A stretch of 48,321 nt of DNA from a virus. Positions 5,196 to 46,232 of the stretch are shown one piece after another. Made by a program: the position numbers and the translations under genes. The notes beneath the pieces were generated by a model. The model saw only the letters and a program-made list of their open reading frames with translations, had not been told where the DNA came from and made no database searches. The stretch's first letter is position 1, and each line of letters starts with the position of its first letter. The stretch covers positions 380,878 through 429,198 of IMG/VR virus record IMGVR_UViG_3300025030_000039, one strand, 5' to 3'.

Positions 5196-6029
5196 TTAAT
5201 CTAATTTTTCTCCACATGTTGGACAAAATTTCCATGTCGATTTTTTAATTCTTGATCTACATTCTGGACAATATTGTCTATTATCAGTTGGAAAAATAAC
5301 AGTTTTTTGAGATTCAGGAAGAATCTTATATTCAACAAATGATGAACAATAAGAATTAAATTCAATATCTATTTGATCAAAATATTGACTTGAAGTTTTA
5401 CCTTTAGATATTCTACCAGTTTCTTTTGTCGCAGACATTTTAGAACATTTAACTGATCTTTTATTTTCATTTAAAAATCCTTTAGTTTGTTCTTGATTAG
5501 AATTTACATTAATATTGATATCTAAGCTATCTGTTGTAGTAGAATATTGTCCACTAGTATTTGTAACTCCTGTTGAATAAAAACATGTATTAATATTTTG
5601 AGTTCCATTTGTATACGTACCAGGAAACCAATAATCTTTGTCAAAAGATAATGTTAAATTTTGATTTTTAACTTTTTCATCATAAAATTCTATACGTAAA
5701 ATACCATTTTTTGCAATAGCATGATTAGTTGATTGATTATTTTCAACTTCATACGTTTCAAAAAGAAATTTACGATTCTGATCTAAATATCTATCTAACC
5801 AAACTCGTTCACCTGGTTTTAAAACAAGTAAATTCTTTGACATAGAATTACCATTAAAGATAATTTTAATACCGATAGTATTTTGTTTTGGATTATAGAG
5901 TTCTAATTCAAACTCATCTTTGTCTCTTAAAAAGACATTATTATCGTTTGCCTGGGAACGATAAACCCTTTGTCTGTTTTTGCCTATGGCCACGTGAGCC
6001 TCTGGCGTTCCATAAAATAATTGTACCAT
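5196..6029 (-). CDS. hypothetical protein with C-terminal zinc ribbon (CPEC...CPTC)
   Basis: C-terminal CxxC-x14-CxxC; S/T/N-rich linker; N-terminal 30 codons noticeably GC-richer than surroundings. Confidence 0.45.
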   Translation of the reverse strand: MVQLFYGTPEAHVAIGKNRQRVYRSQANDNNVFLRDKDEFELELYNPKQNTIGIKIIFNGNSMSKNLLVLKPGERVWLDRYLDQNRKFLFETYEVENNQSTNHAIAKNGILRIEFYDEKVKNQNLTLSFDKDYWFPGTYTNGTQNINTCFYSTGVTNTSGQYSTTTDSLDININVNSNQEQTKGFLNENKRSVKCSKMSATKETGRISKGKTSSQYFDQIDIEFNSYCSSFVEYKILPESQKTVIFPTDNRQYCPECRSRIKKSTWKFCPTCGEKLD

Positions 6030-6158
6030 TTTTAATCTCTATTTTTATTTTTGCTAATTTTTTTGTCGCTCTTAAACGACTCTAAGCTTATTAAACTCAA
6101 AACTAACAAAGTGAGACCTTAACATTAATTATATGAAAATAAAATTAAAAGTTTCGAT

Positions 6159-11973: not shown

Positions 11974-12680
11974 TTTATTAAAAGTTTATATAAATCTTCT
12001 TTAGTATCAATTCCTATATGATCAAAATGTGTTTCTACACCATAAATATTAAGTCCATTATCAAGCCATCTTAATTGTTCTAAACTTTCAGATTTTTCTA
12101 ATTCACTTTCAGATAATTGATTAATCTTAAACAATGCTTTATATGAAAACCCGTATATTCCTATATGTTTATATGGGTTATAATTATTTTGTTTTAAATT
12201 ATATGGTATTGGAGATCTACTAAAATATAAAATTCTTTTATTAGATGCTATAATTGCTTTAACTGTATTTTTATCTAAATATTCTTCTTTATCTTCTATC
12301 TTTTTATAAAGAGTTACAATATTTTTATTTTTTAACAGTTTACAAATATCATCTATACATGTTGGATTAATTTCGGGTTCATCTCCTTGTATATTTAAAT
12401 AATAATCATAATTATATTTTAAATATATTTCTATTAATCGTTCTGTTCCATTCTTATGATCTTTGTTTGTAAATTCTACATTACCATTAAATGATTTTAC
12501 TACATCATATATTCTTTGATCATCTGTTGCAACAATAACATTAGTTAATAATTTAGATTTTTTAACTTGTTCATAAACACATTGTATCATAGGTTTTCCA
12601 TTAATATCTATTAATGGTTTACCGGGTAATCTAGTAGAATTATAACGAGCTGGAATAACTCCTAAATATGTTTTATTCAT
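11958..12680 (-). CDS. kdsB: 3-deoxy-manno-octulosonate cytidylyltransferase (CMP-Kdo synthetase)
   Basis: IPARYNSTRLPGKPLIDINGKPMI, VIVATDD, GTERL, NIQGDEPEI match KdsB signature blocks. Confidence 0.7.
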   Translation of the reverse strand: MNKTYLGVIPARYNSTRLPGKPLIDINGKPMIQCVYEQVKKSKLLTNVIVATDDQRIYDVVKSFNGNVEFTNKDHKNGTERLIEIYLKYNYDYYLNIQGDEPEINPTCIDDICKLLKNKNIVTLYKKIEDKEEYLDKNTVKAIIASNKRILYFSRSPIPYNLKQNNYNPYKHIGIYGFSYKALFKINQLSESELEKSESLEQLRWLDNGLNIYGVETHFDHIGIDTKEDLYKLLIKWKKK

Positions 12681-12942
12681 ATTCTTTAAATGTGGGAGAA
12701 CACCCTAAATATATTGTATTTCTAATCATTTGCTTTTCATAATCTGCTAATCTTTTTTTATTAAAATTTGCTTCGATTATTTCATCACATCTTTTTTTAT
12801 CTATTGTATAATTTGTAAAGAAAAATTCTTGTTCTGTTTCTTTAGTTGCTACCATATTATCCCAATCTCCGACAGGATCTGTTTCTTTATAAAGATCTCT
12901 ATAAATATTTTCAATAATTATTAAAAGTTTTTTATCTCTCAT
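12673..12942 (-). CDS. hypothetical small protein (89 aa) between kdsB and kdsA
   Basis: ORF; not HAD-like, so not KdsC. Confidence 0.35.
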   Translation of the reverse strand: MRDKKLLIIIENIYRDLYKETDPVGDWDNMVATKETEQEFFFTNYTIDKKRCDEIIEANFNKKRLADYEKQMIRNTIYLGCSPTFKEYE

Positions 12943-13712
12943 TGTAATGCATTTTTAATACGTAAACATTTAACTAATATATCATATAGCTTATCTATAT
13001 GCAATATACTCGATGCATCCGATAAGCTCTCAGAAGGATTTGGATGTACTTCGAAAAATAATCCATCTACTCCTACTGCAGTAGCTGCTACTGCTAATGT
13101 TTCAATCATTTCAGGATTACCTCCTGTAGTATTTCCATTATTAGGTTTTTGAACAGAATGAGTACAATCCATAATTACTTTATCTGCATATCGTTTCATA
13201 ATTGGAATAGATGTCATATCCACAACTAAATCTTTATATCCAAATGAACTTCCTCTTTCTGTTAGCCATACTTCACCGGTTGAAACAGATTTAACTTTTT
13301 CTACAACATTTTTCATTGATTCAGGCGACATCCATTGTCCCTTTTTAACATTAACTATAGAATTAGTTTTACCTGCACTAATTAATAAATCAGTTTGTCT
13401 ACATAAAAATGCAGGTATTTGTAAATATGATACATATGAAGATGCTAATGCAACTTCTATAGTTTCATGCACATCTGTTATAACTGGAATATTATATTGT
13501 TCCTTAATGTTTTTAAGAATTTTTAATGCTTCTATATCTCCTATTCCTGTAAATGAATTTAGATCAGATCTATTTGCTTTTTTATAACTTGCTTTAAATA
13601 TTAAATCAACGTTTAAATCTTTAGTTATTTTTATTAATTTATTAACAATATAATATGTAATATCATTATTTTCTATAACACAAGGACCTGCTATTAAAAT
13701 TAAATTACTCAT
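12939..13712 (-). CDS. kdsA: 2-dehydro-3-deoxyphosphooctonate aldolase (Kdo-8-phosphate synthase)
   Basis: LIAGPCVIEN, QIPAFLCRQTDLL, KKGQWM, TERG, DCTHSVQ blocks characteristic of KdsA/DAHP-synthase family. Confidence 0.7.
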   Translation of the reverse strand: MSNLILIAGPCVIENNDITYYIVNKLIKITKDLNVDLIFKASYKKANRSDLNSFTGIGDIEALKILKNIKEQYNIPVITDVHETIEVALASSYVSYLQIPAFLCRQTDLLISAGKTNSIVNVKKGQWMSPESMKNVVEKVKSVSTGEVWLTERGSSFGYKDLVVDMTSIPIMKRYADKVIMDCTHSVQKPNNGNTTGGNPEMIETLAVAATAVGVDGLFFEVHPNPSESLSDASSILHIDKLYDILVKCLRIKNALQ

Positions 13713-27296: not shown

Positions 27297-28058
27297 TTAC
27301 ACTAACTCTATTCCCATAATTTCTGATAATATTTTACGGCCTCTTGCTATTCTATTTTTAACTGTTTGTTCTGTAATCATATTCTTTTTAATTTCATCTC
27401 TTTCAGATTTAAGAGTATTAAATAAAGTTTTATCTCCATTCGTATATGCTACTTTTATTTTATCACATAAATCATTATATTTAGATTTATATTCTTCATT
27501 AAATTTTTCTTCTATTTGTCTATAACTTAAACCATTAAGGAATCGTTCTACCATTATACATTTATAAATAGGTTTTAAATTATGTATTGCATCTAGTAAT
27601 TTACTGTATTGATCATCTTTTTCATTTTGTTCTTTTTCATAATCACTATCATCTTTAATTTCATCAATATCATGTTCATAAAAATCTGTAAAATTTCTAT
27701 CTTTTTTACCAATTTCTGAATTATCAGTATTCTCACTAACTTCATATCCATATGATAAAGATACTCTTGAATTTCTTTCTCTTATAAATTGAATTGAATC
27801 ATGATATGCTATAGTATATAGCCAAGTAGTTATTTGATATGTTTTATCGTATTCATCAATTCTAGTATATAATTTAAACATTGTATTAGAAACCACGTCG
27901 TTCGCTGCATCTTCATCTTGAACTATTTTTAAAACATAATTTCTTATATTTGGATATATTTTTTCATATAAATTTTTAAATGCCTCATCACTACGAGTAG
28001 TATAAAATTCATTTGCTAATTCAGCATAAGTTACTTTTGATAAATCTAATTTTGCCAT
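27297..28058 (-). CDS. sigma-70-family RNA polymerase sigma factor (ECF/late-type), with an insertion inside the region-4 HTH
   Basis: region-2-like DVVSNTMFKLYTRIDEYD...ITTWLYTIAYHDSIQFIRERN and region-4-like LSYRQIEEKF...EQTVKNRIARGRKIL. Confidence 0.55.
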   Translation of the reverse strand: MAKLDLSKVTYAELANEFYTTRSDEAFKNLYEKIYPNIRNYVLKIVQDEDAANDVVSNTMFKLYTRIDEYDKTYQITTWLYTIAYHDSIQFIRERNSRVSLSYGYEVSENTDNSEIGKKDRNFTDFYEHDIDEIKDDSDYEKEQNEKDDQYSKLLDAIHNLKPIYKCIMVERFLNGLSYRQIEEKFNEEYKSKYNDLCDKIKVAYTNGDKTLFNTLKSERDEIKKNMITEQTVKNRIARGRKILSEIMGIELV

Positions 28059-29601: not shown

Positions 29602-29809
29602 TCAATATTTTAGTTTTATGTTTTAAATTAATTTCTTCTTCAAATGATCTATATTGAAACCAATAATCTCCAAAAGATTTTTCTTGACCTTCCTTCCAAT
29701 TCATTTCTATATGTATAATATCATTTATTTCATTTATATTTTTTATACACAATAAAGGATATTGTTTTACTAACTCTGATATATTTTCTATTAATTTATT
29801 ATTTTTCAT
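29588..29809 (-). CDS. hypothetical small protein (73 aa)
   Basis: ORF only. Confidence 0.3.
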   Translation of the reverse strand: MKNNKLIENISELVKQYPLLCIKNINEINDIIHIEMNWKEGQEKSFGDYWFQYRSFEEEINLKHKTKILIDYV

Positions 29810-30494
29810 CTTTAATCAGTTTAATAAATTCATTTATTCCTTCAGTTGCTTTACTTTCAATTTTATTTATATACGCATAACCACCTACATTAGGAGTAGG
29901 ATCAATATAATAAATAGGTTTTAAATCATTAACATATTGTAATAAAGTAGCAGCTGGATAAACTTGTAATGTTGTTCCAATAATTAAAAAAATATCAGCA
30001 GATTTAACAATATTCATAGCATCAGATAATAATGGAACACCCTCTCCAAACCAAACTACAGCTGGCCTATATTCATTTAATTTAGAATTAGATAATTCTA
30101 AATATCCTATATTTATCCATTTAGAATTATCCATATCATCTTCATATTTTCGTATTTTTCTTAATTCACCATGAAGATGTAATATGTTTTTACTACCAGC
30201 TCTTTCGTGTAAATCATCCACATTTTGTGTTATAATAAATACATTATAATCTTTTTCTAATTCAACTAATTTAATATGACATTCATTTGGATGTACATTT
30301 GCTAATTCAGCTCTTACCGAATTATAAAAGGAATTCATTTCTTCTCTAATAGAATTCCATCCATTAATAGATGCATAAACTTCTGGATCATATTTTTCCC
30401 AAAGTCCACCTTTATCTCGATATGTAGGAATTCCGCTTTCTTGTGAAACACCAGCTCCTGTAAATACTACTAAATTTTTCTTATTTTTTCCCAT
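29799..30494 (-). CDS. Sir2-family (sirtuin-like) NAD-binding protein lacking the zinc-ribbon module
   Basis: GAGVSQESGIPTYRDKGGLW, ITQNVDDLHERAG, HLHGEL, PAVVWFGE; no Cys pairs where CobB/Sir2 has the Zn ribbon. Confidence 0.55.
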   Translation of the reverse strand: MGKNKKNLVVFTGAGVSQESGIPTYRDKGGLWEKYDPEVYASINGWNSIREEMNSFYNSVRAELANVHPNECHIKLVELEKDYNVFIITQNVDDLHERAGSKNILHLHGELRKIRKYEDDMDNSKWINIGYLELSNSKLNEYRPAVVWFGEGVPLLSDAMNIVKSADIFLIIGTTLQVYPAATLLQYVNDLKPIYYIDPTPNVGGYAYINKIESKATEGINEFIKLIKDEK

Positions 30495-30792
30495 CTGCTA
30501 TTTTATATCTTGAAATTAATTTTTTATTTGGTAATACACAATCTTCAATTATAGCCGGTTCTCGTGTAGGAATAAACCAAGGAACCCATACATGTCCAGG
30601 TGTTTTTTCTTCAACGCTCATTTGCCAATCATTATATTCTTCATTTAAAAATATATTTATTTTTTCTATTTTATCTGAATATGTTTTTTTACAATATTCT
30701 ATAAAATCTTTAACAATAGGTTCTTGTACAAATATAAGATTTCCTTTAGGTAATTTAGGTAATTTTTCCATTTTATTAAAATAAATCTTCAA
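30481..30792 (-). CDS. hypothetical protein (103 aa)
   Basis: ORF only. Confidence 0.3.
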   Translation of the reverse strand: MKIYFNKMEKLPKLPKGNLIFVQEPIVKDFIEYCKKTYSDKIEKINIFLNEEYNDWQMSVEEKTPGHVWVPWFIPTREPAIIEDCVLPNKKLISRYKIADGKK

Positions 30793-32032
30793 TTATATTA
30801 TCTACCGATTTTGATTCAACTTTATTTTTTTTAGACTTTAAAGTTTTAATACTTTTTGTAACATCATGCACTTTATGTAATTCAATTTGAATTGGTGTAA
30901 CTTTATATTTTTCTTTATTGTCTCGTAATATATTAACCAATTCTTTAGAATATTCTTTATCATTAAAATTAACTGCTTTAAACTGTTCTTCTATTATTTG
31001 TTTTCTCATAGAAGGATTACTCTTTATAGCTTTTATTCTTTTTTCTACATCTTCTCTATTAGATACATAATTAAATTTTTGGCAAATATCTGAATGACCA
31101 AATACACGTTTAGTAGGATCTAATTCAATATCAATTAAAGTTATAACAGAAGCCCATATACTTTGATAACATCTCTGAGGCATATCTCTTCCTTCATACC
31201 ACTCATCGCCTATAACAACATGAGTATATGTATCATTAGATTTTTCCATATAATCTTTAGCATCAACTGACTTTCCATAAATAGGAGGTCTGGGATTACC
31301 ATTTTTAGAAGCAATATTTAATAAATCTTCTGAATTTATTTTTCCAAACATTTCAACATTTATACTATCAGAATATCCAAAATAATATTTAACCATTTTT
31401 TTAATTCTTCTATTACCTCGCATTGTCCCTCCATATATTAAATCATAATTTGGTTTATCATTCATGGATAACGGATTATCAAGACATGGAAATTTTTCGA
31501 ATGGAAAATGAATAACATCTGCTACTTGTATTTCTGTTTTAGAAATAACTTCTCTAACATCATCTAATTTATATGGCTGTGAAATATATATTATATCATT
31601 TCGTGTTATTTCAATATCTTCTTGTTTATAATTAGAACTCCATTCTTTTCCTTTAATTGATCCCCAAGTTTGTCTTAATACTAATGCTGGATCACAATAA
31701 ATATAATAAATTTGACCGACAAATTTATTAATAATGAAATAATTTAAAATTTGATCCCTAGATTCAGCACCACCAAAATAATTTATGGTTCCGTTCAATA
31801 TAATTAATGCATCATATTTTCTATCATTAATTTTATCAAAATTATCTTCAATATTATAAAAATTAAATGTATTTGGATTATTATCTTTTGCTAAAATTTT
31901 TGTATAAATATCTATTTTTGCCCCACCTCTATGTAGAGTTTCAATTATATATCTAGCCTCATAATTTCCACCAGATGTATCTCTAGCATCCCATGCTATC
32001 CTAGAACCTATTTTAATTACTGCTATTTTCAT
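30776..32032 (-). CDS. bgt-like: DNA beta-glucosyltransferase homolog (T4 BGT-like, GT63-type)
   Basis: recalled T4 BGT blocks align along the length: MKIAVIKIG/MKIAIINMG, DALIILNGTINYFGG/DRLIVVNSSINFFGG, QIYYIYCD/KIYYLFTD, YDLIYGGTMRGNRRIKKMV/LDVIYGGSFRSGQRESKMV, VVIGDEWYEG...IWASVITLIDIELD/LIIGDKNYND...TMASDAVMLIDEEFD. Confidence 0.6.
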   Translation of the reverse strand: MKIAVIKIGSRIAWDARDTSGGNYEARYIIETLHRGGAKIDIYTKILAKDNNPNTFNFYNIEDNFDKINDRKYDALIILNGTINYFGGAESRDQILNYFIINKFVGQIYYIYCDPALVLRQTWGSIKGKEWSSNYKQEDIEITRNDIIYISQPYKLDDVREVISKTEIQVADVIHFPFEKFPCLDNPLSMNDKPNYDLIYGGTMRGNRRIKKMVKYYFGYSDSINVEMFGKINSEDLLNIASKNGNPRPPIYGKSVDAKDYMEKSNDTYTHVVIGDEWYEGRDMPQRCYQSIWASVITLIDIELDPTKRVFGHSDICQKFNYVSNREDVEKRIKAIKSNPSMRKQIIEEQFKAVNFNDKEYSKELVNILRDNKEKYKVTPIQIELHKVHDVTKSIKTLKSKKNKVESKSVDNIIEDLF

Positions 32033-32951: not shown

Positions 32952-33455
32952 TTAAAAAATTTTGTTTTGTTTTATTTTATTATTGTTTTTATTATCTAAA
33001 TATATTATATCTATATCAAAAGGTGATACATAATATTTATTTATTTTATAATCAGCATATTTAACTTTGTTTATTTGATAATATATTTTAATATTTGAAT
33101 TATTTTCTAATGTATACCAAATATATTTAACAGATTTATTATTTAATCTGAATTCTTGTCTTTCTTTTATTTTTAAATGATTTTTATCGAATTCAATATA
33201 TGGTCCATGATCACCTATAACTATTCTATTATATCCTATTACAAAAACTTCTTTGTTAAAAATTAATAAATTATTTTCAGAAATATTTTGAAATTTATAA
33301 TATTTATCTAAATATTTTTTATAAATATTTCTTATTATTTGACTATCAATATTATCTAAACAATTATAATTTCCTCTATTAATATTTTCCCAATAAAAAT
33401 TCCAAACTTCTAATTCTTTATTATCTTTAATTTCTTTTAATATAAAATTATACAT
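32952..33455 (-). CDS. hypothetical protein (167 aa)
   Basis: ORF; 8-nt overlap with hydroxymethylase gene. Confidence 0.4.
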   Translation of the reverse strand: MYNFILKEIKDNKELEVWNFYWENINRGNYNCLDNIDSQIIRNIYKKYLDKYYKFQNISENNLLIFNKEVFVIGYNRIVIGDHGPYIEFDKNHLKIKERQEFRLNNKSVKYIWYTLENNSNIKIYYQINKVKYADYKINKYYVSPFDIDIIYLDNKNNNKIKQNKIF

Positions 33456-34329
33456 TACTTTTTATATTTGTATAAATCCAATTAAATAATTTATCTTCAC
33501 TTATAAATAATTTATCTTCTAATATACATGAAGTTAAATATTTAAATACAGAACTCATTTTACCTTTATTATCTATTATATTTAAATCTATTAATGGTAA
33601 TTCTAAAGGTACAAAAGGATGCGCTAACATTTCATTAATGAGTTCAAAATTTCGTTGATATATGTGAAGTGAATTATCTATATGTGTATATTTTCCAAGT
33701 TGTAAATCATGATATTTATCTTCCTTAAGAAGTTTAAACATTTGTTGATGTAATAAAGTAAAAAACGCTATATCAGTTGGTAAACCTAATATAGCATCGT
33801 TTGACCGCATTTCAACAGTAAAATCTAATTTATTATCTCTAATATGAAATATACCTGTTAGTGTACATACAAAATCTTTATTACCTTCAAATTGATGATC
33901 TGGTGTATTAAAATGCATTATAGCTTGTCTTGTATCTTTATCAGATATTAATGAATCATAAGCCCATTCCCATTGATTTTTATTATGTTCATTTACTCTA
34001 TTAAATAATAAATATCCATAAGCACTATTAACAGTTAATCCATCAGGATTAACTATTTGATTCCAAAATTTTGCGTATTTTGATATAAATTCTATAGTAT
34101 TATAACCATTAAAATACCATATTAATTCCGCGGAAATATATTGTAATTGACTGCCTCTTCTTTCATTTTTATATAATGCTGACAATGGATTTGTTATTTC
34201 AATAGATACATTAATATCTTCATTTACATTTTGACCTCTTGGAGATGTAATATATTGAGGATTATAATACAAATCAACTAATATTTTTTTATATGCTAAA
34301 GCAAATGTCTGTTCAGTATAAGTTTTCAT
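33448..34329 (-). CDS. thymidylate-synthase-superfamily dNMP hydroxymethylase, cytosine-type (T4 gp42 dCMP hydroxymethylase-like)
   Basis: DFVCTLTGIFHIR (catalytic Cys block, cf. gp42 DFMCTNTVQYLIR) and VEMRSNDAILGLPTDIAFF (cf. gp42 MRSNDVVFGFRNDYAW; Asp at the position that is Asn in thymidylate synthase PFNIASY). Confidence 0.6.
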   Translation of the reverse strand: MKTYTEQTFALAYKKILVDLYYNPQYITSPRGQNVNEDINVSIEITNPLSALYKNERRGSQLQYISAELIWYFNGYNTIEFISKYAKFWNQIVNPDGLTVNSAYGYLLFNRVNEHNKNQWEWAYDSLISDKDTRQAIMHFNTPDHQFEGNKDFVCTLTGIFHIRDNKLDFTVEMRSNDAILGLPTDIAFFTLLHQQMFKLLKEDKYHDLQLGKYTHIDNSLHIYQRNFELINEMLAHPFVPLELPLIDLNIIDNKGKMSSVFKYLTSCILEDKLFISEDKLFNWIYTNIKSNV

Positions 34330-34965
34330 TACTGATTAGCTTTTAATATTATATTTTTTATTTGATTATTAATTTCTTCAGGTGTATGATTAGAAACATT
34401 TATAAGATATTTATGATAAATTTTACTTTTATTAAAAGCTTCTTCAAATGCTTCTTTTTCTATTTTAACTTCTTCTACATTTTTATAAAATGATAAACCA
34501 TCATCTCTTTTAAGAATTGTTTCTGGATCATTTACAAATACAAACATAAATAAATTATCTTTTAATTCATTTACATATTGTTTTTCTATATCTAAAATAT
34601 AATCACCAGAATATTTTCTATATAAAGGAGCATATACCAATTCTCCTAAATGACTCCTATCAAAAATATAATTATAAGAATTATTAGAAAACAAATCTGA
34701 TGACATTTTATTATTTATACTTTCTATCATCATTGTAAACATTTGATTGTATAAAGTAGTAGAATAATTTATATGTTCTTCGTCTTTATTGAAAGGTAAT
34801 CCACTATAATGAAATGTTTGAAATACATTTCCTTTTCCTAAAATATCAGAAGCTTGTATAAGTTTTATTTGAGTTCCTTTACCTGTATTGTACTCAGTCT
34901 GGCCCTTCCATAATAATATGCAATGGAAGGGCCAGATTTTTAATTTTATTTTTTATTTTGTTCAT
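34329..34965 (-). CDS. thymidylate/nucleoside-monophosphate-kinase-like gene interrupted by a frame change (N-terminal 23 codons in one frame ending at TGA 34894-34896; remainder in +1 frame)
   Basis: frame A: MNKIKNKIKNLALPLHIIMEGPD* (hhhEGxD as in TMK IVIEGLDG); frame +1 continues TEYNTGKGTQIKLI...IFDRSHLGELVY (GKGTQ and DRS lid-like motifs) through the annotated ORF 34329..34742. Confidence 0.4.
34901..34932 (-). promoter_or_regulatory. GC-rich perfect 11-bp inverted repeat (ggcccttccat/atggaagggcc, 10-nt loop) immediately 5' (mRNA sense) of the frame-breaking TGA; candidate recoding/bypass or terminator-like structure
   Basis: direct reading; perfect complementarity; on the plus strand followed by a T-rich run (agatttttaattttattttttattttg). 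Confidence 0.45.
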
Positions 34966-35951: not shown

Positions 35952-36698
35952 TTATTTTATATTATTGAAATAATTATTAATTTCATTTAATTCACTTTCA
36001 GTATTAAAACTTTTTGTTAAAAATTTATCATCTAATATTAATAAATGAGCAGGTTCATTTATATTCCATAAATAATGAACAATATCTAAAAATATTAATT
36101 CTTTATTTATATACTTTCCATTTTTATCTAAAACATTATGAGCAGTTAATAAATGATTATAAAAATTATTATTTATCACAAATATAGATTGATCGTGATA
36201 TCCATCCGAAATTTTATCACCTCTTTTACTAAACATTGCTTGTTCTGCTTTATTGTCTGAAAATTTAAACCATACATACGGATTTTTTTCATATATTACA
36301 GGTATAGTAAGACTAGTAGTAGTTTTAATATTTGATATATTTTCAAACAATTCTTTATTTGAAAAATAAGTATCTCCCCAACAAATAGAAATATTATCAT
36401 ATACATTAGTATCTATAAATCCTAATGTTTCTAATATTGCATGCCCACAACCTCTTCCTGATTTAATAGGTATTAAATGTATTTTATCATCTAAATCTAT
36501 ATAATTATGTATAACTTCTTTATAAAGATCAAAATTTGTATGATTAGAGGCAATTATAATTTGATCATAAAATTCATAAGCATTTTCTATAGTATGCAAT
36601 AAATTTGGTTTACCGTTTATTAAAGATATCGCTTTAGGCAAATATCCCATTCTTGAACTGTCACCAGCCGCTATTATAAGTAATACTTTTTTATTCAT
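35952..36698 (-). CDS. IspD/TarI-family sugar(alditol)-phosphate cytidylyltransferase-like protein
   Basis: LLIIAAGDSSRMGYLPKAISLINGKPNLLH matches the AAGxGxRMG..PKQ...L.G.P glycine-rich loop of IspD/TarI/MobA-like NTP transferases. Confidence 0.5.
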   Translation of the reverse strand: MNKKVLLIIAAGDSSRMGYLPKAISLINGKPNLLHTIENAYEFYDQIIIASNHTNFDLYKEVIHNYIDLDDKIHLIPIKSGRGCGHAILETLGFIDTNVYDNISICWGDTYFSNKELFENISNIKTTTSLTIPVIYEKNPYVWFKFSDNKAEQAMFSKRGDKISDGYHDQSIFVINNNFYNHLLTAHNVLDKNGKYINKELIFLDIVHYLWNINEPAHLLILDDKFLTKSFNTESELNEINNYFNNIK

Positions 36699-37095
36699 TA
36701 GTAATGAGATCGAATGTAAATATTTTTTTAAAAATTATTTCTTGTTCATTTTGTGTGCCTGTAGATCTAATTCCAACTCTTAAATCATCTAAAATTTCTT
36801 TTGCTATATTACCTTTAGGTGTTTTTAATATTTCTAAATTAACATAAATTTCATTATCATTTTCATAATAAATGTCTGTTATAAGATGAGATACATTAGC
36901 TAAAGAAATTTCAAATTCAGTAGGATTATATAATTCTCCTAATAATGTTTTATTTTTAATTTTTTCTTTTAAGTGTTCTATATTTTGTTTTAGACTTTCC
37001 TTATTAACATTTACCCATCTAGGTTCTGTTAAATCTAATGCTAATGCTTTATAAGCAATAGGAATTAATTTATATTTTTCTTTATTCATTTTCAA
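36691..37095 (-). CDS. hypothetical protein (134 aa)
   Basis: ORF only. Confidence 0.35.
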   Translation of the reverse strand: MKMNKEKYKLIPIAYKALALDLTEPRWVNVNKESLKQNIEHLKEKIKNKTLLGELYNPTEFEISLANVSHLITDIYYENDNEIYVNLEILKTPKGNIAKEILDDLRVGIRSTGTQNEQEIIFKKIFTFDLITNE

Positions 37096-37552
37096 TAATT
37101 AAATTTGTAAAATATCTTTTTTTAATTTCAAAAAAATTATTTTTAGAATTTGAATATTTTTTTACAGTATCTTTATCACAATATCCAGCAAATATAATAT
37201 TTATTTCATTATGTGATATATTTTCAATTTGCATTAATGCAATATAATCAAATGTTAATTTTTTAAAATAAACATTATCGTGATATGTAGCTCTATTTGT
37301 TTTAACATCTATTTTAAATCCAGCATGTATAAAATCATATCCACCATCACCTTTAACATTATTAGTATAATTTATTTCTGATACTTTATCTTCAAATAAT
37401 TTTTTATACGCTAATTCACCTAATTTGCCTATAATAATATCTTTCTTAACTTTTCGTTTTTCTCTATATTGAGCATTATGATTATTGAAAGATTTATTTG
37501 CAAATTCAAATAAATCTTTCAATTCATTTCGTTTTATTTGTATTTTTATCAT
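37082..37552 (-). CDS. hypothetical protein (156 aa)
   Basis: ORF only. Confidence 0.35.
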   Translation of the reverse strand: MIKIQIKRNELKDLFEFANKSFNNHNAQYREKRKVKKDIIIGKLGELAYKKLFEDKVSEINYTNNVKGDGGYDFIHAGFKIDVKTNRATYHDNVYFKKLTFDYIALMQIENISHNEINIIFAGYCDKDTVKKYSNSKNNFFEIKKRYFTNLIIENE

Positions 37553-37928
37553 AATTGCTTTTAAATAATTCTATAAATTCAGGATAAAACCATCCTTTAA
37601 AATTTTTATCTTTTTCTAATTTTAAAATAAAATCATAAGACTCTTTAGATCCTATTTGTACATGTAATGTTTTAAGTTCTCTTTCACTTTCACGAAGTTT
37701 AATATGATCATTAGAAAAATTTCTAGCAATTTTATAAATATCTTTTGGATCAGGAGCATTATCAGGATTATGAACACGCTTCCAAATGAGATTATGAATA
37801 TAAGCACTTGCTGTTTTAGTATGATAATCTGTTTTAACTTCTTCTGAATATTCACGTTTAACAATATAATAGTATTGTAATTCTCCTATTGCTCCATCTT
37901 GTAATTCAAAAAATCCATCTTCTATCAT
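37524..37928 (-). CDS. hypothetical protein (134 aa)
   Basis: ORF only. Confidence 0.35.
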   Translation of the reverse strand: MIEDGFFELQDGAIGELQYYYIVKREYSEEVKTDYHTKTASAYIHNLIWKRVHNPDNAPDPKDIYKIARNFSNDHIKLRESERELKTLHVQIGSKESYDFILKLEKDKNFKGWFYPEFIELFKSNYDKNTNKTK

Positions 37929-37929
37929 T

Positions 37930-39768
37930 TTACGAAATTAATTTTAAAAGTTTCAATGTATCATGTGGATTATTGACATCATATACAATAGTTGTTTTAA
38001 CTTCTCTAAATACTGAATCGTTTCCTTTTTCTAATTCATCTCCGACGAATAAAATTGATGCGTCTTTAAATCTATTATATTCAAATATAACTAATTTACT
38101 ATATCCTTTATGCATTATGTCTATAGTAGATCTTCCATTTAATTTAATTTCATATTTATCTCCAATTAATACTTCTAAATCTTTCGCCTTTATTATTCTT
38201 TCATTTTCTTTAAATCGTCTAAATGAAATAATCACATTATTTCTATTTTCAAATTTATATACTGGTATATTACATTTAACTGCAGCATTATAAATTTCAT
38301 TAATTTGATCATTTGTTAATACATATTTATTAGTTAAGTAATGCGAAAAAATATATTCTCTTTTCTTATTATCCCATACACATTTACTATTTCCACCATC
38401 ACAAAATAACTCGTTTTTATAATCACCAGAAGTATTACAATATTTTTTAAGTTGTTTATTAATGTGCTCAACAGAATTACCAGTTAAAATTGAAAATTCT
38501 GGATTTTTATATATTATTTCTAGATTATGTCTAGATTCGTTAATAAATGAATCCTCGTATCTAGATACTAAAGTACCATCAAAATCAAATATAATTTTAT
38601 CTTTATTAATTAATTCTGTATAATAATTTCTAATAATTATTTTGGCTAAAAGATCACCATTATGTACACTTGCAATAGTTAGAGAATAAGGATCATTAAT
38701 AATATCTTCTGTTATAATATCATTAGTTAAAGCAGTTTCAATATATTTAAAAGAAGGATCAATTTTTCGCATACTTTCATGAGCATTAGAATTAACTATA
38801 GTTATTATGTCTTCTAATGGAAGATATTTATTTAGAATATGTTGCATTTGACCAGCATTTATGCCTTTCATATCGCTATCTTGTACATTATTCATAATTA
38901 AAAATTTTAAAGCTTTTGATTCTTTAATAATTTTTTTGAAGTCTTTATGTTTATAAGTAGGTATTAAAGAGGACCACTGTGTACCAGGTCCAAAAGTTAT
39001 GATATCTGCTTCTTTAATTTTTTCTAAAACTTCATTAGAAATTTCGGGAATTACTTCTTCATTTTTATTATTTACCAATCTAATATCTACTATAGGATCA
39101 TCTTCATTATCCCATTTAACAATAATTGCTTCATCTAATAGTAATTTACCAGATTTAGTAAATGCTTGTAAATATAAACTAACATCTGATATTAATAATA
39201 CTCTATCTTCAAGTATTCTAAATACCTCTTTAGCCATTATCTTACCAGCAGTCGCTAATGAAAAATTATTCAATCCAGCTAAACCTGCATATATCATGTT
39301 AGCAATAGAAAAATTATTAAATGATATTAAATCTATATTCCTTTGAGAAAAGAAACTATCTACAGCAGGATTAATTATATTATCTAAAATATTTAAATTT
39401 AATGTTTTATCTTCTTCATTAAATGAACAATTATTAATAATTTCTTTTTTTATTTCTAATAACATTTCATTAATATGATTAAAACTAGCATCTTTAGAAT
39501 TTAAATCTATTCTTTTAAATAAAAAACCTTTAATTAAATTAGCAAGTGGACTATTATCGATAAATCCATATGCGTATTCTTGATTTTTTCTTAAATCTGA
39601 AGGTCCTAATATTTTACCATCATAATTTTTTCTAACTTCTCCTGTTGATAATCCATTATCATAACAATTAGTTATTAAAGTTAAAGTTAAATCTTTATCA
39701 AGAAGTCTATCTAATCCATTTTGTAGAGTTATTGTACCTCCACCACCTGTAAATGATACTATTTTCAT
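37930..39768 (-). CDS. CofD/YvcK (UPF0052, 2-phospho-L-lactate transferase-like) domain fused to a C-terminal HAD-like hydrolase domain
   Basis: N-terminal KIVSFTGGGGTITLQNGL...LTLITNCYDNGLSTGEVRKNYDGKILGPSDLRKN parallels YvcK/CofD GGGTG..LL.GL...ITAIVTVADDGGSSGRLR..GI.PPGDIRN; residues ~395-405 KIIFDFDGTLV = HAD motif I. Confidence 0.5.
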   Translation of the reverse strand: MKIVSFTGGGGTITLQNGLDRLLDKDLTLTLITNCYDNGLSTGEVRKNYDGKILGPSDLRKNQEYAYGFIDNSPLANLIKGFLFKRIDLNSKDASFNHINEMLLEIKKEIINNCSFNEEDKTLNLNILDNIINPAVDSFFSQRNIDLISFNNFSIANMIYAGLAGLNNFSLATAGKIMAKEVFRILEDRVLLISDVSLYLQAFTKSGKLLLDEAIIVKWDNEDDPIVDIRLVNNKNEEVIPEISNEVLEKIKEADIITFGPGTQWSSLIPTYKHKDFKKIIKESKALKFLIMNNVQDSDMKGINAGQMQHILNKYLPLEDIITIVNSNAHESMRKIDPSFKYIETALTNDIITEDIINDPYSLTIASVHNGDLLAKIIIRNYYTELINKDKIIFDFDGTLVSRYEDSFINESRHNLEIIYKNPEFSILTGNSVEHINKQLKKYCNTSGDYKNELFCDGGNSKCVWDNKKREYIFSHYLTNKYVLTNDQINEIYNAAVKCNIPVYKFENRNNVIISFRRFKENERIIKAKDLEVLIGDKYEIKLNGRSTIDIMHKGYSKLVIFEYNRFKDASILFVGDELEKGNDSVFREVKTTIVYDVNNPHDTLKLLKLIS

Positions 39769-40043
39769 TTTAAAATTGTTAAAATTATCATATTAATAAT
39801 TGCGAATATAAACCAATACATTAAATATTCATTAGTATCCGAATTAAATTTTATACTAAATTCTTCTTGAGATATCTCTTTTATTATTTTATATCCCATA
39901 TAATTATATTCTATATTATTTGAATCAATATAAACATTTTTATTATTACTATTTTGAATAGCCTCATCTATTAATTTATCAGTTCCATTTATATTCAGAT
40001 AATACTGATCTTTATTTTGTATTTTAATTTTTTTCATAATCAA
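39765..40043 (-). CDS. hypothetical protein with C-terminal TM helix
   Basis: YLMYWFIFAIINMIILTIL. Confidence 0.35.
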   Translation of the reverse strand: MIMKKIKIQNKDQYYLNINGTDKLIDEAIQNSNNKNVYIDSNNIEYNYMGYKIIKEISQEEFSIKFNSDTNEYLMYWFIFAIINMIILTILK

Positions 40044-40729
40044 AAATCGGGATTTGTAATTCTTATATCGTAAGTTGTAAAATTTTCAAAATCTAATTCA
40101 TCTGCTTCTAATCTTCTATTTAAACTATCACCTGGCATTTTTCTTTGTGCTAATCTAGTTTTTCTAACAGTTTTAGGTATGTCAAAATACATTATAAAAC
40201 AATTTTTTCTATCAGCTTGTGAAATTTTAGATATACCAGATGGTGTCATTATAAAAATATCATCTTTATAAAATTGTTGTTTTGATGTTCCATAATGCCA
40301 TCCATTAAAACTAACGTATTCATACCAAAACCTTGATTGTATTTTTTCTTCAAAATCTTTATTTGAAATAAAAACATAATCTTTATTATTTACTTCTCCA
40401 TCTCTTGGTGGCCTAGTAGTATACGATGTAGCATACACATATCCTTTATCTTCAAATAATTTTCTAGCATAATCTTTGCCAGATGCAGCTGCTCCTACTA
40501 ATATTATTCTTTTATGATTTCTATAAAAATATTTTACTTCTATTGTGCATGTTTGCATACTTCTAGCAACTGGTAAAATATTAATTTCTTGAATATCAAC
40601 CATTATAGGATCTAAACCATTTCTAATTAAATTTTTTTCTAATATAATATTAGTCAATTTATTATTTCTATCATATTTTTCAAATAAGCTAGAATCATCT
40701 TTTGATATTATAAAAGTTGTAGATAACAT
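40040..40729 (-). CDS. guanylate-kinase-fold nucleoside monophosphate kinase with ~75-aa N-terminal extension and atypical P-loop GAAASGKD
   Basis: YATSYTTRPPRDGEVNNKDYVFISNKDFEEKI...GWHYGTSKQ aligns with GMK TTRPPRPGE..G.DY.FVS..EF...I...YGTS; P-loop ends in D (as in T4 Dnk GVKRSGKDT) rather than S/T. Confidence 0.5.
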   Translation of the reverse strand: MLSTTFIISKDDSSLFEKYDRNNKLTNIILEKNLIRNGLDPIMVDIQEINILPVARSMQTCTIEVKYFYRNHKRIILVGAAASGKDYARKLFEDKGYVYATSYTTRPPRDGEVNNKDYVFISNKDFEEKIQSRFWYEYVSFNGWHYGTSKQQFYKDDIFIMTPSGISKISQADRKNCFIMYFDIPKTVRKTRLAQRKMPGDSLNRRLEADELDFENFTTYDIRITNPDF

Positions 40730-44999: not shown

Positions 45000-46232
45000 T
45001 TATTTTAGAGATTTTTTTAATTCTTTTAAATCATTAATATACATTTCTTTAGGAATTAATTTTTTAGTTTCAATTAATTCTGCCTTTTTAATTTCAAACT
45101 GATTCATTAATTCATCATATTTTTCTTTTGTTAATGAATGAATAGCCATTGACAATAAATAAGAATAAGAATCATCAATTTTATCAAATTTTAACTTACT
45201 TAATGATTCAATTATTTTATCTTTAGGAACTTTATTAACTTTAATTTCATTATCTATTATTCCCTTTATAAAGCGTGCTTTGTTAGATAATATTTTAACT
45301 TCATATTCTGATTTATCGATTAGATAATCTTTTCTTTTTTGATAGTAATTTAATCTAAAATCAACAAAATATTGAACTATATCTTTAGCAGATTTAAATA
45401 TTTTAAGCTTTCCTGTTTCATCAAGAGTTGTTAAATTTTCAGTTTCATATTCTTGTAGCTTAAATAAATCTTCAATTTTTTCCTTTTTAAGGAAAGTCGC
45501 TAAATTTGTTCTAGAAAATTTAATTTCATAATTTATATTTTGTGAACAATTATCTTCATATGAAGCTATTTCTTTTTTTGCTAATTTAGAATTTAAATGT
45601 TTTTCATATTTTTCATATGTTGTGCTAGGTGGTAATTCTGATATAATTATTGTACTTGTATTTGTTACTGCATATTTTCCTTCAAATATCCACCTGTTAG
45701 ATTTTTCTTCATCTTTATAAATGCCTCCTGTAAAATCTTTAATCCATGGTGGTAATTCTCTAATTTTTTTACTATCTAAATGATCAAGACATGCATCAAT
45801 TAATGTTTTTGGATTTCTATTTAATATATTTGTTGCAAATCCTACAGCAATTCCTGAACTTCCATTTAATAATACAGTCGGTATTATGGGTAAGAAGAAA
45901 TTCGGTTCAATTTCATTTCCTTCTTCTATTTTAGATTCTAATAATTCGAAATCTTTATATAATAATCTAAAATTAGGATGTAACCTAGTTGATATATATC
46001 TAGGAGCTCCTGCTTCGGGAGATCTTAAACTACCAAATTGTCCAATTTCATCTAGTAGTGGCATAGAATTTTTATAAGATTGTGCCATTCCTATAATTGC
46101 TTGATTTAATGCTGAATTATGAACTACTATTTTAGATTTACCTACTACAAAACTTTCATATTCAGGAACTGATATATCATAATATTTTTTAGGTTCATTT
46201 AAAATATTAATTTTTATACTCTTTATTTTCAT
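45000..46232 (-). CDS. topoisomerase II A-type (GyrA/T4 gp52-like) subunit, C-terminal fragment, preceded by intein C-terminal splicing segment (Int-C, ~39 aa) with its own start codon
   Basis: N-terminal MKIKSIKINILNEPKKYYDISVPEYESFVVGKSKIVVHN (intein blocks F/G, terminal HN) then extein SALNQAIIGMAQSYKNSMPLLDEIGQFGSLRSPEAGAPRYISTRL (cf. GyrA SAVYDTIVRMAQ...GNFGS...AAMRYTEIRL; active-site Tyr). Confidence 0.65.
   Translation of the reverse strand: MKIKSIKINILNEPKKYYDISVPEYESFVVGKSKIVVHNSALNQAIIGMAQSYKNSMPLLDEIGQFGSLRSPEAGAPRYISTRLHPNFRLLYKDFELLESKIEEGNEIEPNFFLPIIPTVLLNGSSGIAVGFATNILNRNPKTLIDACLDHLDSKKIRELPPWIKDFTGGIYKDEEKSNRWIFEGKYAVTNTSTIIISELPPSTTYEKYEKHLNSKLAKKEIASYEDNCSQNINYEIKFSRTNLATFLKKEKIEDLFKLQEYETENLTTLDETGKLKIFKSAKDIVQYFVDFRLNYYQKRKDYLIDKSEYEVKILSNKARFIKGIIDNEIKVNKVPKDKIIESLSKLKFDKIDDSYSYLLSMAIHSLTKEKYDELMNQFEIKKAELIETKKLIPKEMYINDLKELKKSLK

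Follow-up and report, generated by a model that had tools for sequence, protein, structure and literature searches.

A YvcK/CofD-phosphomannomutase-like fusion and its nucleotidyltransferase partner in a viral genome: a candidate sugar-donor module for DNA glycosylation

The stretch of viral DNA considered here (positions 380,878 to 429,198 of IMG/VR record IMGVR_UViG_3300025030_000039; the window, below, means all 48,321 nucleotides of it) encodes a protein in which a YvcK/CofD-family domain is fused to a phosphomannomutase (PMM)-like HAD domain, along with a separate nucleotidyltransferase (NTase) and homologs of a T4 DNA glycosyltransferase (GT) and of a cytosine hydroxymethylase. The fusion and the NTase are a functional unit that recurs in phages and bacteria, and we consider it moderately probable that this unit is a portable module that makes a nucleoside diphosphate (NDP)-hexose donor for a neighboring GT, which in the window would serve DNA glycosylation. 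The principal features are the following.

37930-39768, minus strand: YvcK/CofD-PMM-like fusion, 612 aa
38734-39768, minus strand: YvcK/CofD-family N-terminal domain of the fusion (residues ~1-345)
Residues 354-363 of the fusion: low-confidence linker
37933-38613, minus strand: C-terminal PMM/alpha-phosphoglucomutase (PGM)-like HAD-IIB domain of the fusion (residues ~386-612)
35952-36698, minus strand: MobA-like/GT-A-fold NTase, conserved partner of the fusion, 248 aa
33448-34329, minus strand: thymidylate-synthase (TS) homolog of the cytosine hydroxymethylase type, 293 aa
30776-32032, minus strand: homolog of T4 beta-glucosyltransferase (BGT), a GT-B DNA glycosyltransferase, 418 aa

The fusion belongs to a rare but genuine conserved family and is no chance open reading frame (ORF). 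A search of 1.84 billion proteins returned 152 representatives at E<=1e-30, a separate search gave 115 homologs at 90% clustering, and an ORF of 612 residues is long for a genome with the ~22% GC content of the window. The NCBI-sourced homolog clusters carry only the names 'YvcK family protein' and 'CofD/UPF0052'. The comparison drew on 80 bacterial and 39 viral loci and several more, and de-duplication at 90% identity left 65 clusters with the CofD-HAD fusion, 33 bacterial and 32 phage-like, to which the counts below refer. The NTase gene lies within 100 bp of the fusion gene, on the same strand and with no gene between, in 61 of the 65 clusters (32 of 33 bacterial, 29 of 32 phage-like), and within 1.5 kb in one further bacterial cluster (L024) and two further phage-like ones, namely the window and its closest relative, L002. 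These last two share a loosened arrangement in which small ORFs are inserted. An initial annotation of this DNA had proposed from the window alone that the two genes form a cassette, and the wider comparison bears this out; neither of the findings that it had named as evidence to the contrary, a mismatch of the N-terminal domain to CofD/YvcK models or unlinked genes in related genomes, was encountered.

The same partners are also joined in single proteins in some bacteria. Distant CofD-like relatives occur as NTase-CofD-GT2, CofD-NTase, CofD-GT2 and GT2-CofD-HAD fusions (GT2 being glycosyltransferase family 2), as called with Pfam models, the iterated NTase hidden Markov model also catching GT2 domains since both are GT-A folds; at one locus, unfused CofD, HAD and NTase genes are consecutive. 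The cultured Ralstonia jumbo phage RsoM2USA has the fusion as gp1, a BGT homolog as gp2 and an NTase homolog as gp486 (33% identity, E=3e-27). gp1 and gp486 are at opposite ends of the linear record, and only a joining of these ends would make the three genes contiguous.

In phages, the genes that accompany the pair point to DNA as the target. Of the 32 phage-like clusters, 25 have a BGT-like gene at most 10 kb from the pair (in 13 of them at most 100 bp away), and in four further clusters it is replaced by homologs of the TET-associated glycosyltransferase (TAGT, PF20691). A DNA-GT homolog of one kind or the other is thus present within 10 kb in 29 of the 32, often overlapping or abutting the fusion gene, and 21 have a TS-like hydroxymethylase gene no farther away than that. 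The TAGT homologs are placed as follows.

L115:9111-9992: TAGT homolog, next to the pair
L095:7247-8218: TAGT homolog, next to the pair
L117:8682-9536 and 12433-13287: TAGT homologs, on both sides of the pair
L118:1531-2385 and 5289-6140: TAGT homologs, on both sides of the pair

These four TAGT-type phage contigs have neither BGT-like nor TS-like genes, and no TET genes were seen in the stretches of them that were examined. The association of the same pair with two unrelated families of DNA GT argues that the pair supplies a donor. The initial annotation had drawn attention to adjacent 5-hydroxymethylcytosine (hmC) and BGT genes (33448-34329 and 30776-32032); both are real, and the phage-like clusters strongly support the connection to DNA modification. 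The cassette might in principle act elsewhere, remodeling a host envelope glycan or decorating virion proteins, with the proximity to hmC and BGT genes being incidental. Half of the known family members do reside in bacterial cell-wall polysaccharide or teichoic-acid clusters, and in the window the BGT-like gene is about 6 kb from the cassette. Such a target is nonetheless very improbable given the DNA-GT homologs in 29 of 32 phage-like clusters and the TAGT-like genes that flank the pair on both sides in L117 and L118; furthermore, the phage loci examined showed no membrane glycan machinery (flippase, GT-C or polyprenyl GT).

A third kind of neighborhood was observed in two IMG/VR contigs of 164 and 205 kb (L119:7471-9991 and L125:7122-9986), where the pair is preceded by a DpdA-like homolog, a short-chain dehydrogenase/reductase and an ORF of ~300 residues. 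The DpdA-like homolog is of the queuine/7-deazaguanine transglycosylase type (phrog_887, E down to 3.6e-46), the dehydrogenase/reductase is FabG-like and nucleotide-sugar epimerase-like, and the ~300-residue ORF has no Pfam or PHROG match. These loci may specify a different, possibly glycosylated, DNA modification. In another phage-like cluster, L104, a C5-cytosine methylase is located near the pair.

The BGT homolog of the window matches PF09198 (6.7e-23), phrog_7922 (2.1e-52) and T4 BGT itself (1bgt, 4.3e-33), and it keeps the residues at the aligned 1bgt positions that we take to be the catalytic Asp and the phosphate-binding Arg of the T4 enzyme; it is the likely consumer of the donor that the module would make. 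The TS homolog matches PF00303 (1.4e-18), and in the PDB it is matched best by the CMP hydroxymethylase MilA (6.6e-27) and T4 dCMP hydroxymethylase (1.9e-18). It retains the Asp in the motif 'RSND' (no D169N) and also has Asp at the position equivalent to N177. Because D169N is the criterion for a 5-hydroxycytosine (5hoC) synthase (PMC13326640), that alternative identity was rejected for the TS homolog, which is taken to be of the hmC type. Two further genes may contribute to nucleotide metabolism in the same region.

34329-34742, minus strand: thymidylate-kinase-like fragment, 137 aa (PF02223, weak, E=0.0042)
40040-40729, minus strand: guanylate-kinase-like P-loop kinase, 229 aa (PF00625, 4.4e-16; phrog_1815, 2.2e-33)

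The first of these corresponds to only the C-terminal half of a thymidylate kinase, without a P-loop, and shares one base with the hydroxymethylase gene at the stop/start junction. Homologs are found near the pair in most BGT-type phage loci, and the fragment is possibly a remnant or subunit of a kinase for deoxynucleoside monophosphates, including the hydroxymethylated one (hm-dNMP). The guanylate-kinase-like protein, which has an N-terminal extension of ~70 residues, has homologs within 1 kb of the pair, directly after the NTase gene, in 15 of the 32 phage-like clusters and in none of the bacterial or TAGT-type loci. It may be an hm-dNMP kinase, or it may recycle nucleoside monophosphate (NMP) for the sugar pathway.

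The initial annotation had described the large protein as a CofD/YvcK-HAD fusion, and such it is: the N-terminal part matches PF01933 (CofD) over residues 3-317 with 79.6 bits against a cut-off of 30 (E=3.1e-22), and the C-terminal part is HAD-IIB/PMM-like. The label 'CofD-like' holds in the sense of this PF01933 match, which is not by itself specific for CofD because the family spans YvcK as well; membership in the true CofD/FbiA branch did not hold up. The CofD equivalog model TIGR01819 gives 13.9 bits against a cut-off of 257, and a profile search with the fusion family recovered none of the solved CofD/FbiA sequences at E<=1e-3. The YvcK subfamily model TIGR01826 gives 71.5 bits against a cut-off of 196, and YvcK/GlmR proteins are the closest relatives of the N-terminal domain in both sequence and structure, with conserved N-terminal motifs. 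As judged from these comparisons, the domain is assigned to the YvcK/GlmR branch rather than the F420-related CofD/FbiA branch. Its catalytic-type motifs are invariant within the family, and D40 of GlmR, the proposed catalytic Asp, aligns by eye to the invariant D37 of the fusion. An AlphaFold model of the fusion built with 77 sequences has a pLDDT of 93.8 and a pTM of 0.90. A fold search of BFVD returned matches to the HAD domain only, with no CofD-like fold among the viral models.

The C-terminal domain matches PMM and HAD-IIB family models weakly (18.5 bits for PF03332, against a gathering score of 22.4), and more sensitive comparisons place it near PMM. Foldseek gives 4bnd at 4.6e-10; the profile of the domain matches PMM structures in the PDB over the full domain at 7.6e-16, while phosphatases are at ~1e-4; and hhalign against PMM2 gives a 98% probability, the PMM match being corroborated by 2amy in the profile search. 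HAD motifs I-IV (DxDxT, S/T, K and GDxxxGND) are all present. Across the 77 sequences, D395, D397, T399, K558, G576 and G582 are invariant and N583 is nearly so, and some bacterial members have GNE...GAE as motif IV. The nearly invariant R509 and R524 align with R123 and R141 of PMM2, and R134 has no clear equivalent; these three PMM2 arginines are presumably those of the cap domain that bind the second phosphate. On this evidence the domain is classed as PMM/alpha-PGM-like and not as a phosphatase-type HAD-IIB domain, which indicates a hexose phosphate or bisphosphate as substrate. Both sequence and fold fit a putative mutase and a putative hexose-bisphosphate phosphatase equally.

The NTase was initially labeled IspD/TarI-like, a label that is only loosely right: it suits the nucleotide-binding half and fails for the full length and at family cut-offs. 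It matches PF12804 (NTP_transf_3, MobA-like) at E=1.7e-9, whereas PF01128 (IspD) falls below threshold (E=0.008, 16.4 bits against a cut-off of 27) and NF001183 gives 35.9 bits against a cut-off of 166. Its best NCBIfam match is GlmU, under the equivalog cut-offs, and it has no acetyltransferase domain. Similarly, the family profile matches GlmU in the PDB at 5.3e-16 over positions 2-196 of 245, compared to 7.9e-13 over positions 2-130 for IspD and 3.5e-10 over positions 2-98 for TarI, both of the latter being limited to the N-terminal nucleotide-binding half. The family consensus (IIAAGKxSRFG..PKAL, SGxGDGHAV and WGD) contains the GlmU-type signature (L/I)xAAGxGxR...PK and the (Y/W)GD metal motif, and the match extends into the sugar-binding half. 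The enzyme is predicted to be GlmU-like, being most similar to the uridylyltransferase domain of GlmU without being GlmU itself.

In bacteria, the pair resides in gene clusters for cell-wall polysaccharide or teichoic acid, with a GT2 enzyme fused or adjacent. In Clostridia/Christensenellaceae it is part of a self-contained cassette, with unrelated genes around, that consists of a processive-type GT2 synthase, the fusion and the NTase. The order in Bdellovibrionales is HAD(IA) - NTase - CofD-GT2 - GT2 - GtrA, and in Pyrinomonadaceae a HAD-IIB homolog is upstream of CofD-GT2. HAD, NTase, CofD-like domain and GT are therefore a recurring functional set. The presence of these GTs, including the minimal cassettes of GT2 synthase plus pair, fits donor synthesis better than a terminal transfer of a phospho-alcohol. 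The same architecture has been reported in Mycoplasma fermentans PG18, in which a cassette of GT2 synthase, CofD-family gene and NTase 'from Clostridia' was tied to an unsubstituted beta-1,6-glucofuranan, and the authors suggested that it synthesizes NDP-glucofuranose (PMC11658790).

Two bacterial loci have further features. A Bdellovibrionales metagenome-assembled genome (L044:6257-14842) has, in sequence, a flippase, a methyltransferase, HAD-IA, the NTase, CofD-GT2, GT2, GtrA and an unknown protein of 563 residues; its organization is that of a GtrABC-like locus for surface glycosylation, centered on the CofD-like domain, in which a non-homologous HAD replaces the PMM-like one. In L128 (20773-21788 and 15904-16746), the polysaccharide cluster that contains the pair also has an NTase fused to a phosphoenolpyruvate (PEP) mutase and a LicD phosphotransferase, which suggests a phosphonate-decorated glycan, and a glycyl-radical enzyme and its activase are directly beside the pair.

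The simplest way to model the window's genes, in a scheme that starts from the observed domain identities, gene linkage and GT association and proposes in which order the steps run, which sugar is made and what the YvcK-like domain does, is as follows. The TS-like enzyme would produce 5-hydroxymethyl-dCMP, and the hydroxymethylated cytosine would enter DNA. The PMM-like HAD domain would convert a hexose phosphate or hexose 1,6-bisphosphate into hexose-1-phosphate, acting as a mutase or as a phosphatase for the distal phosphate, and the GlmU-like NTase would combine hexose-1-phosphate with NTP to give NDP-hexose. The YvcK/CofD-like domain would add a third step, either an anomeric phosphotransfer in place of the kinase of kinase-phosphatase-NTase routes or a conversion of the NDP-sugar. 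Finally, the BGT-like enzyme would transfer the sugar from the phage-made donor to the hydroxymethyl group of hmC. For the YvcK-like domain, a kinase-equivalent anomeric phosphotransfer could be considered first, then an NDP-sugar conversion, and then a purely regulatory role. YvcK/GlmR proteins have been reported to act on UTP, GlcNAc-1-P and UDP-GlcNAc (PMC10128056). Both ordinary glucose and a less usual form, for example a furanose, are candidates for the sugar. A more specific proposal, which we regard as possible but doubtful, is that the YvcK/CofD-like domain is a new sugar-activating enzyme (an anomeric phosphotransferase, or a flavin-independent converter of NDP-pyranose, for instance to the furanose), and that these jumbo phages, RsoM2USA among them, accordingly decorate hmC with an undescribed sugar such as glucofuranose.

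Several points weigh against donor synthesis. Characterized CofD/FbiA enzymes form phosphodiesters from NDP-activated donors, and the YvcK/CofD-like domain could do likewise. T4-type BGTs use host UDP-glucose, and a dedicated donor pathway is not obviously needed. The guanylate-kinase-like gene, located directly after the NTase gene in roughly half of the phage-like clusters, could hint at recycling of GMP after a CofD-type reaction, and three phage-like clusters (L104, L119 and L125) have no recognized GT nearby. The functions assigned to family members are predictions from sequence, a structure model and gene context. Finally, the CofD-family gene of M. fermentans was reported as two pseudogene pieces (PMC11658790), and the link to that locus is one of architecture only: among 249 close homologs found with the NTase profile of the Clostridia group, none is named Mycoplasma.

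The first and third of these points are part of the case for a phosphodiester cassette. Here the NTase would make an NDP-activated alcohol or sugar, the CofD-like domain would move a phospho-alcohol or sugar-1-phosphate to a hydroxyl group on glucosyl-hmC DNA or on a glycan with release of NMP, and the HAD domain would strip a leftover phosphate. Besides PF01933 membership, with CofD/FbiA as characterized members that catalyze exactly such a transfer, this proposal can draw on CofC/CofD being itself a pair of NTase and transferase, on the frequency of two-step pathways of the 'synthase + HAD-IIB phosphatase' kind, and on the guanylate-kinase-like gene (15 of 32 phage-like clusters), which could recycle the freed GMP; moreover, some bacterial clusters contain TagF-like or LicD phosphotransferases, which place phosphodiester-decorated polymers at the same loci. 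We nevertheless judge it unlikely. The domain lies on the YvcK/GlmR branch, as the TIGR01819 score and the missing CofD/FbiA matches indicate, the HAD domain is PMM-like and thus different from the phosphatases of synthase/phosphatase pairs, and the NTase resembles GlmU more than IspD/TarI. In addition, the minimal cassettes of GT2 synthase plus pair have a single counterpart of such architecture in the literature, whose polymer lacks phosphate substituents, and LicD in L128 is explained by the PEP-mutase-fused NTase of the same cluster. The version put forward in the initial annotation, CDP-polyol-phosphate phosphodiester transfer, is likewise not the best reading in view of the GlmU-like NTase, the PMM-like HAD domain, the YvcK branch and the accompanying GTs. 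The pneumococcal CDP-2-glycerol pathway (Gtp2/Gtp3), considered as a possible equivalent, was dropped: the papers covered give no family assignment for it and no homolog bears these names, and the PMM-like and GlmU-like assignments make the equivalence less likely.

A sub-case of donor synthesis would involve no new chemistry. The phage would then encode its own phosphoglucomutase and UDP-glucose (or UDP-GlcNAc) pyrophosphorylase, with the YvcK/GlmR-like domain as a UDP-sugar-sensing regulatory or accessory part, and would thereby secure a host-type UDP-sugar for the glucosylation of a very large genome. The PMM/alpha-PGM-like and GlmU-like assignments agree with this, GlmR is known either as a regulator that binds UDP-GlcNAc or as an accessory uridylyltransferase, the catalytic and phosphate-binding residues of T4 BGT are kept in the BGT-like enzyme, and much donor would presumably be required for genomes of 340-460 kb in which all C is modified. 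Such boosting of a standard donor is quite unlikely, however, because bacterial polysaccharide clusters normally encode pathways for non-housekeeping sugars only, and the pair is embedded in such clusters and even fused to GT2. The invariant catalytic-type motifs of the YvcK-like domain also suggest an enzyme rather than a sensor, and published work ties the compact synthase cassette to glucofuranose, an unusual form of sugar.

Donor synthesis by the pair has its closest parallel in phages with arabinosyl-5-hydroxycytosine DNA (RB69/DLP3/HY126), in which UDP-arabinofuranose is made by an arabinose-5-P isomerase, the kinase+NTase AfhE and the HAD phosphatase AfhF, and the genes for kinase, phosphatase and NTase adjoin those of the DNA arabinosyltransferases (PMC13326640). 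As proposed for the window, sugar-nucleotide genes adjoin a TS homolog and DNA GTs, a HAD enzyme and an NTase act on a sugar phosphate, and the overall logic is that a dedicated NDP-sugar is made and hydroxylated cytosine is then decorated. The window cassette differs in that it lacks an isomerase and a protein-kinase-like or APH-like kinase and has the YvcK/CofD-like domain instead, its HAD domain is PMM-like (IIB) and not GmhB-like, and the acceptor would be hmC and not 5hoC, with a BGT-like or TAGT enzyme as the GT.

The individual components also have recognizable counterparts. With YvcK/GlmR (UPF0052) of Firmicutes, the fusion shares the motifs GGxG, DNGxSTG, PxDxR and GxxxxS and a functional tie to a hexose-phosphate mutase/NTase pathway. 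YvcK/GlmR is a stand-alone protein of ~320 residues, unlike the 612-residue PMM-like fusion, which has its own NTase and GT, occurs in phages and scores under the TIGR01826 cut-off; no yvcJ/whiA-type neighbors, as in the yvcJ-glmR-whiA operon, were found around the fusion in the window. CofC/CofD (FbiD/FbiA) of coenzyme F420 synthesis likewise pairs an NTase of GT-A/MobA-like fold with a PF01933 protein, whereas the partners of the fusion family are a PMM-like HAD domain and GTs, and among the annotated neighbors, both those in the window and those in over 20 related loci, there were no F420 genes (cofC/E/G/H). The C-terminal domain resembles eukaryotic-type PMM and the atypical alpha-PGM of L. 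lactis (HAD-IIB) over its full length and in DxDxT, Lys and GDxxxGND, and the adjoining NTase gene recalls the logic of PMM+GMPP or PGM+GalU; it departs from HAD-IIB mutases in its fusion to a YvcK-like domain and in scoring below the PF03332 gathering score. The M. fermentans PG18 locus has the three-gene architecture of the Clostridia/Christensenellaceae cassettes but belongs to a Clostridia-derived transposon with a split CofD-family gene and to a capsule context rather than a DNA one, so that the likeness is one of architecture only (PMC11658790).

A phage-encoded sugar-donor pathway for DNA glycosylation is thus of a known type, and the YvcK/PMM-like fusion with its NTase would be a different, uncharacterized donor module. 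The initial annotation's statement that no phage system of such composition has been described stands as far as the literature covered shows: in that incomplete coverage, no publication was found to connect a gene of the CofD/YvcK family with DNA modification in phages, the TET/TAGT paper does not mention such a gene, and the RsoM2USA paper has no CofD-type gene among its functional assignments, gp1 being listed in GenBank as a hypothetical protein. There is a meaningful chance that the cassette hides new enzymology and a new DNA sugar. Hypermodifications of phage DNA govern how well it withstands restriction enzymes, CRISPR and type IV defense and are a source of DNA-labeling enzymes, and the known phage donor pathways, for UDP-arabinofuranose and UDP-galactofuranose, are recent discoveries. 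The module accompanies three kinds of DNA-modification loci (with BGT-like, TAGT and DpdA-like neighborhoods) in many huge phages, and identifying its product would both predict a new sugar modification on DNA and account for a group of bacterial glycan loci, perhaps that of glucofuranan among them. If the YvcK/CofD-like domain were indeed a new sugar-activating enzyme, the same module would provide this sugar for cell-wall polysaccharides in gut Firmicutes, and a catalytic function would be assigned to a branch of the long-enigmatic YvcK/UPF0052 (YvcK/CofD) family. The question is directly testable in the cultured phage RsoM2USA, which has the fusion, BGT homolog and NTase genes.

The layout of the window is simple. 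Nearly all ORFs of at least 80 residues are on the minus strand, the ORF coordinates of the initial annotation correspond to real minus-strand ORFs, and the genes from 40729 to 35657 make up a single co-directional string in which each overlaps or abuts the next. The fusion and NTase genes are separated in this string by three small ORFs.

37524-37928, minus strand: small ORF, 134 aa
37082-37552, minus strand: small ORF, 156 aa, no family match
36691-37095, minus strand: small ORF, 134 aa, match to phrog_207

None of the three (36691-37928) matches a Pfam family above threshold. The three are probably outside the pathway, because the fusion and NTase genes are directly adjacent in most relatives. 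Two of them (36691-37095 and 37082-37552) are also present in L002/L003, the closest relative only, and in L002 the homolog of ORF 36691-37095 adjoins the fusion gene. This ORF matches phrog_207, a head-maturation-protease family, at 7.6e-13 over profile positions 61-168 of 519, and also Peptidase_S77 weakly; it resembles a fragment of a protease domain in an unexpected location. In ORF 37082-37552, a PD-(D/E)xK-like motif can be discerned by eye (GDGGYDF...KIDVKT), and the ORF may be a small nuclease or a mobile insertion that splits the two cassette genes. Elsewhere, the window encodes a SIR2-family protein (29799-30494, E=9e-38), a sigma-70-like factor (27297-28058) and a topoisomerase IV/gyrase A-like protein (45000-46232) whose N-terminus weakly matches an intein-splicing domain (E=0.0019).

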